This document shows, piece by piece, positions 1-421 of a stretch of DNA of 421 nt; within the stretch, counting starts at the first letter, position 1; every line of letters begins with the position of its first letter. This DNA comes from a phage, in sequence record X15717.1; one strand, given 5' to 3'. The position numbers and the translations under genes were made by a program. The notes under the pieces were generated by a model. It worked only from the letters and a program-made list of their open reading frames with translations. It made no database searches and was not told where the DNA came from.

Positions 1-22
1 AGTCCTTCAGCCGCTTAAATAA
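1..22 (+). CDS. G: 3' end of major spike protein G (5'-partial; last 6 codons plus stop)
   Basis: Reading from position 2 gives V-L-Q-P-L-K then TAA at 20-22. This matches the C-terminus of phiX174 protein G as I recall it (...CLQPLK*). It is in the same frame and strand as the downstream H gene and in the position expected from Bullavirinae gene order (F-G-H). Only 6 codons are visible, so the call depends on context. Confidence 0.6.
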
Positions 23-47
23 AAGGCTGCCGCACTCCCGGTTAGAT

Positions 48-69
48 GCCTGCCCAGTGTAGGGCAGAC
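48..69 (+). repeat. Inverted repeat / hairpin I (6-bp stem CTGCCC/GGGCAG, 6-nt loop AGTGTA)
   Basis: Bases 50-55 (ctgccc) are the exact reverse complement of 62-67 (gggcag). One further G48:C69 pair is possible across a C49/A68 mismatch. No U-tract follows. Confidence 0.6.
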
Positions 70-81
70 CGAGCCGACCCG

Positions 82-99
82 ATAAACTAGATAAACTAG
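82..99 (+). repeat. Perfect tandem direct repeat, 2 x 9 bp (ATAAACTAG ATAAACTAG)
   Basis: Positions 82-90 and 91-99 are identical (ataaactag), seen directly in the sequence. Each unit ends in the palindromic tetranucleotide CTAG. Confidence 0.9.
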
Positions 100-105
100 G
101 AACGT

Positions 106-126
106 GGAAGGCGTTAGCCGCCTTCC
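106..126 (+). repeat. Inverted repeat / hairpin II (perfect 8-bp stem GGAAGGCG/CGCCTTCC, 5-nt loop TTAGC)
   Basis: Bases 106-113 (ggaaggcg) are the exact reverse complement of 119-126 (cgccttcc), giving 6 G:C and 2 A:T pairs. The hairpin is followed 3 nt later by CTG at 130-132 and has no downstream U-tract. Confidence 0.7.
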
Positions 127-143
127 CTCCTGCTAAGCCCAAA

Positions 144-149
144 AAGGAG
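144..149 (+). promoter_or_regulatory. Shine-Dalgarno ribosome-binding site for gene H (AAGGAG)
   Basis: AAGGAG at 144-149 lies 8 nt upstream of the ATG at 158, which is canonical spacing, and sits within an A-rich context (aaaaaggag). Confidence 0.75.
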
Positions 150-157
150 TTACAGCG

Positions 158-421
158 ATGTTAGGTGCCGTTGTTGGTGGCATTGCCTCAGCCTTAGCTA
201 GTGGTGCCGCTTCGAAATTATTTGGAGGCTCTCAGCGTGGAGTTTCTGTTATGCAGCAAGGTGCCGAGTCTGCCGGATTGACTAACGGCGGCGGCGCCAT
301 TTCTATGGATAATGACCAAGGTATTCAGTCTGCTATTCAAGGCTCGAATGTTCCTCCTGCTGGTCAGCTTCCTGAGTCTCAGAACTCTGGTGTTATGGCT
401 GATGCTGGTAACATGCTTCGT
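158..421 (+). CDS. H: DNA pilot protein / minor spike protein H, N-terminal 88 codons (3'-partial, runs off window end)
   Basis: ATG at 158 with a Shine-Dalgarno site upstream, and an open frame for 88 codons to the window end. Translation: MLGAVVGGIASALASGAASKLFGGSQRGVSVMQQGAESAGLTNGGGAISMDNDQGIQSAIQGSNVPPAGQLPESQNSGVMADAGNMLR. The N-terminus aligns closely with phiX174 H as I recall it (MFGAIAGGIASALAGGAMSKLFGG... and the ...SAIQGSNVP... block). Third codon positions are strongly T-biased, as is typical of phiX-like phages. The other two + frames are closed by multiple stops. Confidence 0.93.
   Translation, partial: MLGAVVGGIASALASGAASKLFGGSQRGVSVMQQGAESAGLTNGGGAISMDNDQGIQSAIQGSNVPPAGQLPESQNSGVMADAGNMLR

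Follow-up and report, generated by a model that had tools for sequence, protein, structure and literature searches.

A very probable G4-type DnaG-dependent minus-strand origin, with a rearranged spacer, in the G-H intergenic region of an alpha3-like phage

Location and gene context

The window analyzed in this study (the whole stretch of 421 nt) was found to be 98.3% identical to coliphage alpha3 across all 421 nt, the match covering positions 4938-5358 of X60322 and three other alpha3 records. Judged by this match, it corresponds to the alpha3 G-H intergenic region together with the start of gene H, and its source can be placed among the alpha3-like microviruses (Bullavirinae, Alphatrevirus). 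The following gene features were located.

20-22, + strand: stop codon TAA of gene G (major spike protein); the G coding sequence of X60322 ends at 4959, which is window position 22
23-157, + strand: G-H intergenic region, 135 nt, between the G stop codon and the H ATG at 158
144-149, + strand: Shine-Dalgarno sequence AAGGAG of gene H, lying outside the origin (ribosome_binding_site 194-199 of M25640)
158-421, + strand: 5' part of gene H, 88 codons, for the N-terminus of the minor spike (pilot) protein; identical to alpha3

The end of gene G is found at the same position in ID32, WA13 and others. The origin region is noncoding and is presented on the same strand as the genes, i.e., in the coding sense. 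In Bullavirinae the coding-sense strand is the encapsidated (+) strand, and the complementary strand is therefore synthesized on it as template.

Positions 25-139 of the window very probably constitute a G4-type DnaG-dependent minus-strand origin of the alpha3-like kind, in which 106-126 forms stem-loop I (Hairpin I) and CTG at 130-132 is the primer start; we hold this assignment with high confidence. The observations that support it, all made here, are the anatomy of the element, its homology to the annotated G4 primer site, its conservation and covariation, and the fact that individual genomes contain no second hairpin of this kind. It should be noted that the primase origin is an already known and well characterized element, and that the present analysis brings nothing new on its mechanism. 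Its parts are listed below.

25-70, + strand: stem-loop III, in which 25-31 pairs with 63-70 and A68 forms a bulge; a local alternative hairpin (50-55/62-67) lies inside it; assigned by covariation
72-105, + strand: spacer, corresponding to the stem-loop II region in G4-type origins, with a rearrangement specific to the window; identified by comparison with alpha3
106-126, + strand: Hairpin I, 8-bp stem GGAAGGCG/CGCCTTCC with loop TTAGC; found by inverted-repeat search, folding and pairing in 19 phages
104-131, - strand: predicted full-length primer template of 28 nt, running through Hairpin I, with the primer 5'-AGGAGGGAAGGCGGCUAACGCCUUCCAC-3'; by analogy with G4
130-132, + strand: 5'-CTG-3', DnaG initiation trinucleotide; kept in 19 of 19 phages and aligned to G4 3996-3998
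133-139, + strand: conserved block CTAAGCC, directly 3' of the start site; from the 19-phage alignment

Hairpin I and the chance level of its occurrence

The original prediction, made from the letters of the DNA alone, had pointed to a perfect 8-bp hairpin at 106-126 followed 3 nt later by CTG at 130-132. This description proved accurate: the arms at 106-113 (GGAAGGCG) and 119-126 (CGCCTTCC) are 100% complementary, they enclose the 5-nt loop TTAGC, and the trinucleotides CTC (127-129) and CTG (130-132) follow as spacer and candidate start site. One correction concerns the number given to the hairpin. It had been called hairpin II, whereas in the published numbering, which is counted from the primer start, it is hairpin I. 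As single-stranded DNA, the hairpin has a predicted energy of -9.4 kcal/mol (z = -3.5 against shuffles), and it is present in both the minimum-energy and the centroid folds of the whole intergenic region. A shorter motif, the GCGTTAGC 'mini-hairpin' sequence, is located at 111-118 within it.

It is conceivable that such a structure is nothing other than a chance inverted repeat beside a chance CTG, with no function. Because CTG occurs 12 times on the + strand of the window, the trinucleotide alone is uninformative. Hairpins of this kind also arise at some rate at random: when the window was shuffled with its dinucleotides kept, a perfect 8-bp hairpin with a loop of 3-8 nt appeared in 155 of 5000 shuffles (about 3%), and shuffling of the intergenic part gave 37 in 5000. 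Such a hairpin together with CTG no more than 8 nt 3' of it was seen in 23 of 5000 shuffles. Taken by itself, the window sequence is therefore suggestive of a start site and not decisive, and the case for the start site is built instead on homology, on conservation and on the finding that this is the sole such hairpin in a whole genome. The latter came from a scan for perfect stems of at least 8 bp with loops of 3-8 nt in six complete genomes (alpha3, G4, St-1, phiK, a WA13-like phage and ID52), in each of which Hairpin I was the only perfect hairpin of at least 8 bp.

We also searched Rfam with both strands at E values up to 10. Only three chance-level matches were obtained, far under the gathering scores and all to unrelated eukaryotic lncRNA and sRNA models, so that no curated RNA family covers the element.

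Homology to the G4 origin

Window positions 1-160 were compared by sensitive blastn with 50,697 phage records. All of the 31 matches at E up to 10 were to alpha3-like and G4-like phages. With ID52 and NC6, which belong to the latter group, identity was 76.9%, and the stretch matched in them carries no annotated gene and is located between genes F and G. For G4 itself, the intergenic region (23-157) gave a full-length alignment with positions 3891-4018, with 73.7% identity over 133 nt (E = 7e-16), whereas the neighboring gene H and G4 shared only matching patches of up to 36 nt. As read from these alignments, the origin module is a self-contained element that is conserved more than the DNA surrounding it. 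Its location differs between the two groups, between F and G in G4 and between G and H in alpha3-like phages. The likeness to the G4 origin extends over approximately 130 nt (73.7-76.9% identity) and includes the 8-bp Hairpin I, the 3-nt spacer, CTG and the long stem III.

The annotation of G4 made it possible to compare the start site directly. In NC_001420, an 'RNA primer of replication' is annotated at 3970-3997 and an 'origin of compl. strand synthesis' at 3998. The template at 3970-3997 reads ATGGACGGCGAAAGCCGCCGTCCCTACT and base 3998 is G; therefore, the G4 primer starts with A opposite T3997 of C3996-T3997-G3998. These three bases occupy the same alignment columns as C130-T131-G132 of the window, so the alignment with mapped G4 starts that had been proposed as a check places CTG 130-132 on the annotated start column for column. 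Similarly, the G4 hairpin GGACGGCG/CGCCGTCC (positions 3972-3992, inside the annotated primer) aligns on window 106-126. In both clades a stem of 8 bp carries a loop of 5 nt, or of 4 nt in ID52 and NC6, and CTG follows after a spacer of 3 nt. The loop itself differs, being AAAGC in G4 and TTAGC in the window. Alpha3, St-1 and phiK, on the other hand, share Hairpin I, the CTC spacer, CTG and the CTAAGCC block with the window without any difference. Previous work described Hairpin I of St-1 and alpha3 as an 8-bp stem with GCGTTAGC where G4 has GCGAAAGC (PMC13037366). Sims, Capon and Dressler 1979, as cited in PMC13037366, dealt with the dnaG-dependent origins of the negative strand in St-1, phiK and alpha3; a unique primer with a mapped 5' end, made in vitro by DnaG and SSB independently of rifampicin, DnaB and PriA, is reported from that study for these three phages, as it is elsewhere for G4 (PMC6783573).

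The same search bears on a different kind of priming site. A stable hairpin in a microvirus intergenic region might be a primosome assembly site of the phiX174 type, at which PriA recognizes the hairpin, PriB, PriC, DnaT, DnaB and DnaC assemble, and DnaG then primes at many sites; the phiX174 assembly site is intergenic as well. However, no phiX174-like record was present among the 31 matches at E up to 10 in the 50,697 phage records, and the homology is instead to the G4 primer site, which depends on primase and SSB only. We consider a primosome site at this locus extremely improbable. More generally, the phiX174 PriA (n') site and the minus-strand origin of M13/f1 do the same job as the proposed origin, i.e., conversion of viral single-stranded DNA to the replicative form, and both are hairpin-based and intergenic. 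The machinery is different, with the PriA primosome acting in phiX174 and the host RNA polymerase in M13, and neither site showed sequence similarity to window positions 1-160 by blastn.

Conservation and covariation of the stems

We aligned the origin from 19 phages, 15 of them alpha3-like and 4 G4-like. All eight pairs of the Hairpin I stem are formed in 19 of the 19. At pair 109:123 the alpha3 clade has A:T where the G4 clade has C:G, a compensatory change, and the stem is otherwise invariant; as far as the alignment indicates, this covariation is a single evolutionary event that separates the alpha3 clade from the G4 clade. CTG 130-132 is likewise invariant in 19 of 19 phages. Thus, conservation of hairpin and CTG among related phages, on which the original prediction had been made to depend, was observed throughout, with one compensatory pair in addition. 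Together with the G4 homology and the presence of a single such hairpin in each of the six genomes, it supports the proposal that CTG 130-132 is the DnaG start site. The reading as a chance repeat is at odds with the invariance of stem and CTG in 19 phages of two genera with a compensatory change, with the fact that no other such hairpin exists in the six genomes, and with the alignment to an annotated primer site. Conservation, covariation and genome-wide uniqueness effectively refute it, and its probability is negligible.

Within the Hairpin I loop, positions 114-115 are variable (TT, CA, TA and AA occur, and ID52 and NC6 lack one base), and A116, G117 and C118 are invariant in the 19 phages. 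One metagenome contig (SKEJ01012116.1; L036 ~150-156) carries a C118T change in this loop, an observation that bears on the GCGNNAGC/GCGNAGC mini-hairpin model. A pattern search in which Hairpin I was left free detected only known Bullavirinae and one metagenome contig, and no covariation was added by it.

Stem III (25-31/63-70) is supported by the same alignment: 99.2% of cells are paired in the 19 phages, no one-sided changes were found, and two pairs are compensatory (28:66, CG/UA, and 29:65, GC/AU). G4 also folds into a long stem equivalent to stem III. The energy model preferred the local hairpin 50-55/62-67 over this long stem. We chose the long stem because of its two compensatory pairs; the local hairpin showed only one-sided changes and G.T pairs and was rejected as stem III. 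The two structures share positions 63-67 and are mutually exclusive.

Between stems I and III, G4 has a stem-loop II (CGGAGA/TCTCCG, -6.4 kcal/mol), whereas alpha3 and the window are almost devoid of predicted structure in this region. No significant hairpin was found there in alpha3 (-1.8 kcal/mol) or in the window (-1.7 kcal/mol), and the window contains only a 4-bp CTAG/CTAG stem, which was created by the duplication described below. A strong hairpin II is absent from all alpha3-like phages; therefore, this feature defines G4 itself and not the whole family.

Predicted primer and mechanism of initiation

The G4 system provides the model for how this origin would work. Previous studies showed that primase and SSB suffice for primer synthesis at G4ori and that the primer is initiated at the T of a 5'-CTG-3' on the 3' side of three stem-loops (PMC6783573). 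SSB bound to the G4 origin leaves regions of approximately 30 nt free of SSB on either side, the origin is bound by two primase molecules, and the full-length primer is 28 nt (PMC6783573).

From this literature we carried over to the window, by homology, the SSB/DnaG mechanism with its protein requirements, the start nucleotide and the length of the primer, and they would give the following sequence of events. After infection, host SSB would coat the circular (+) strand of the virus. It would not melt stem-loops I and III, which would phase it and leave short SSB-free stretches to which DnaG would bind directly, with neither DnaB nor the PriA primosome taking part. DnaG would then read 5'-CTG-3' 3 nt 3' of stem-loop I, so that the predicted primer begins with pppA opposite T131 followed by G opposite C130. 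It would copy through Hairpin I to approximately position 104, which would yield a primer of up to about 28 nt (AGGAGGGAAGGCGGCUAACGCCUUCCAC), and the DNA polymerase III holoenzyme would extend this primer to generate the replicative form. The exact start nucleotide proposed for alpha3 is based on homology to G4 and on a secondary citation, and the length and 3' end of the primer are predicted by analogy with G4.

The reverse complement of positions 104-131 is AGGAGGGAAGGCGGCUAACGCCUUCCAC, and at T131 it begins AGGAGGGAAGGCGG, as had been predicted for a primer starting opposite this base. The accompanying suggestion that this primer resembles that of G4 was borne out in part. The predicted primer and the G4 primer (AGUAGGGACGGCGGCUUUCGCCGUCCAU) are identical at 22 of 28 positions; however, their 5' ends are not identical, the G4 primer beginning with AGUAGGGA and the one predicted for the window with AGGAGGGA.

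Directly 3' of the start site, C133, A135, A136, G137, C138 and C139 of the CTAAGCC block are invariant in the 19 phages, and they are also present in the plasmid homologues discussed below. This block is probably inside the single-stranded region bound by primase, a role assigned to it because of the G4 model of SSB-free flanks (PMC6783573).

An alternative model for this class of origins proposes that SSB melts the outer stem and leaves only the GCGTTAGC mini-hairpin (PMC13037366). With this model the details of initiation change and the start site is the same. The invariance of G111-C112-G113 and A116-G117-C118 is compatible with the full-stem and the mini-hairpin models alike, and the single C118T variant slightly favors the full stem over the mini-hairpin.

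A G4-type origin is the classic example of minimal priming, since DnaG needs no partner other than SSB to begin DNA synthesis at one defined position, and origins of this type are still the standard substrate for studies of bacterial primase and of the primase-to-polymerase switch. The present case also illustrates that reasoning from the sequence alone (a stable hairpin followed by CTG) can pick out what is very probably the real start site.

Possible roles at the RNA level

Viral strand and mRNA share their sense, and the element lies between two genes. It might therefore be asked whether the hairpin acts mainly as RNA, either as a leaky terminator or stabilizer after gene G or as a damper of H translation. 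Folding of positions 100-175 as RNA kept the hairpin and paired CUCCU (127-131) with AGGAG (145-149) of the H Shine-Dalgarno sequence, and the DNA fold did likewise. However, the RNA fold does not stand out significantly from shuffled sequences (z = -1.75), of which 11 in 200 folded at least as well. Moreover, in G4 the same module is upstream of gene G and not of gene H, and it has CTACT instead of CTCCT, yet the stem and CTG are kept. Their retention before a different gene argues for a function at the DNA level that is independent of the neighboring gene. We regard a mainly RNA-level function as very unlikely; a role of the RNA could at most be added to the origin function and would not replace it.

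The CTCCT segment at 127-131 overlaps the CTG primer start, and its pairing with AGGAG at 145-149 could damp translation of the low-copy protein H. An intrinsic terminator was considered and rejected: the stem is not followed by a T-run (the next bases are CTCCTGCTAAGCCC), and a scan of the window detected no terminator-like site. A promoter scan of the window was also negative.

Rearrangement of the spacer between stem III and Hairpin I

The window differs from alpha3 only in the spacer that separates stem III from Hairpin I, where positions 77-98 combine a 9-nt deletion with a 9-nt tandem duplication that no deposited relative shows. After position 76 the 9-mer TACGGAGAT has been lost, and two tandem copies of GATAAACTA occupy 81-89 and 90-98. 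When this deletion and duplication are applied to alpha3, exactly the window is obtained, with its length unchanged, and all seven differences from alpha3 are confined to 77-89. The rearrangement leaves Hairpin I and CTG untouched. The lost 9-mer belongs to the block TACGGAGATACYCGA, which is kept in all 18 other aligned phages, including the G4 clade, and also in all 13 viral contigs and one metagenome contig; in G4, stem-loop II has this 9-mer as its 5' arm. Viral contigs gave no match to the full variant, to the duplication alone or to the deletion alone, and the full variant was also not found in contigs from metagenomes and genomes or in E. coli genomes.

The spacer variant may come from a natural isolate or from a laboratory stock, may have arisen by an error in sequencing or assembly, or may have been designed. 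That the rearrangement at 77-98 is a genuine, viable origin variant appears doubtful to us. If it is real and functional, the sequence of the stem-loop II region would be dispensable for DnaG priming provided that stem III and Hairpin I stay the same distance apart, and the duplication would be a compensatory event that restored the spacing. The preserved distance would fit selection on spacing. At the same time, since 9 nt of a conserved block are missing, the efficiency of the origin may be reduced in the window variant. A genuine variant would thus be a natural test of sequence versus spacing in the middle of the origin.

Homologues in small plasmids

Signals of the G4-type ssi class are DnaG priming signals on single-stranded DNA and are built from hairpins. 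For plasmids, single-strand initiation (ssi) signals are credited to Nomura et al. 1991, as cited in PMC6854812. We found that two small E. coli plasmids (9.65 kb and 8.0 kb) contain a homologue of window positions 19-139 with 71-79% identity, detected by sequence homology at the following locations.

CP057337.1 1083-1205 (L033 1501-1623), minus strand: homologue in the 9.65-kb plasmid
NZ_CP062859.1 (L034 863-985): homologue in the 8.0-kb plasmid

In these homologues, the stem III region and CCCTCCTGCTAAGCC are kept as in the window, whereas Hairpin I is replaced by a sequence that contains GCGAAGC and has no clean nearest-neighbor fold. Because Hairpin I is not preserved, they were left out as evidence for structure. 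The homologue may be a putative plasmid single-strand initiation signal of the G4 type. In the 9.65-kb plasmid, it is situated in a long noncoding stretch, and all 14 annotated genes are on the other strand.
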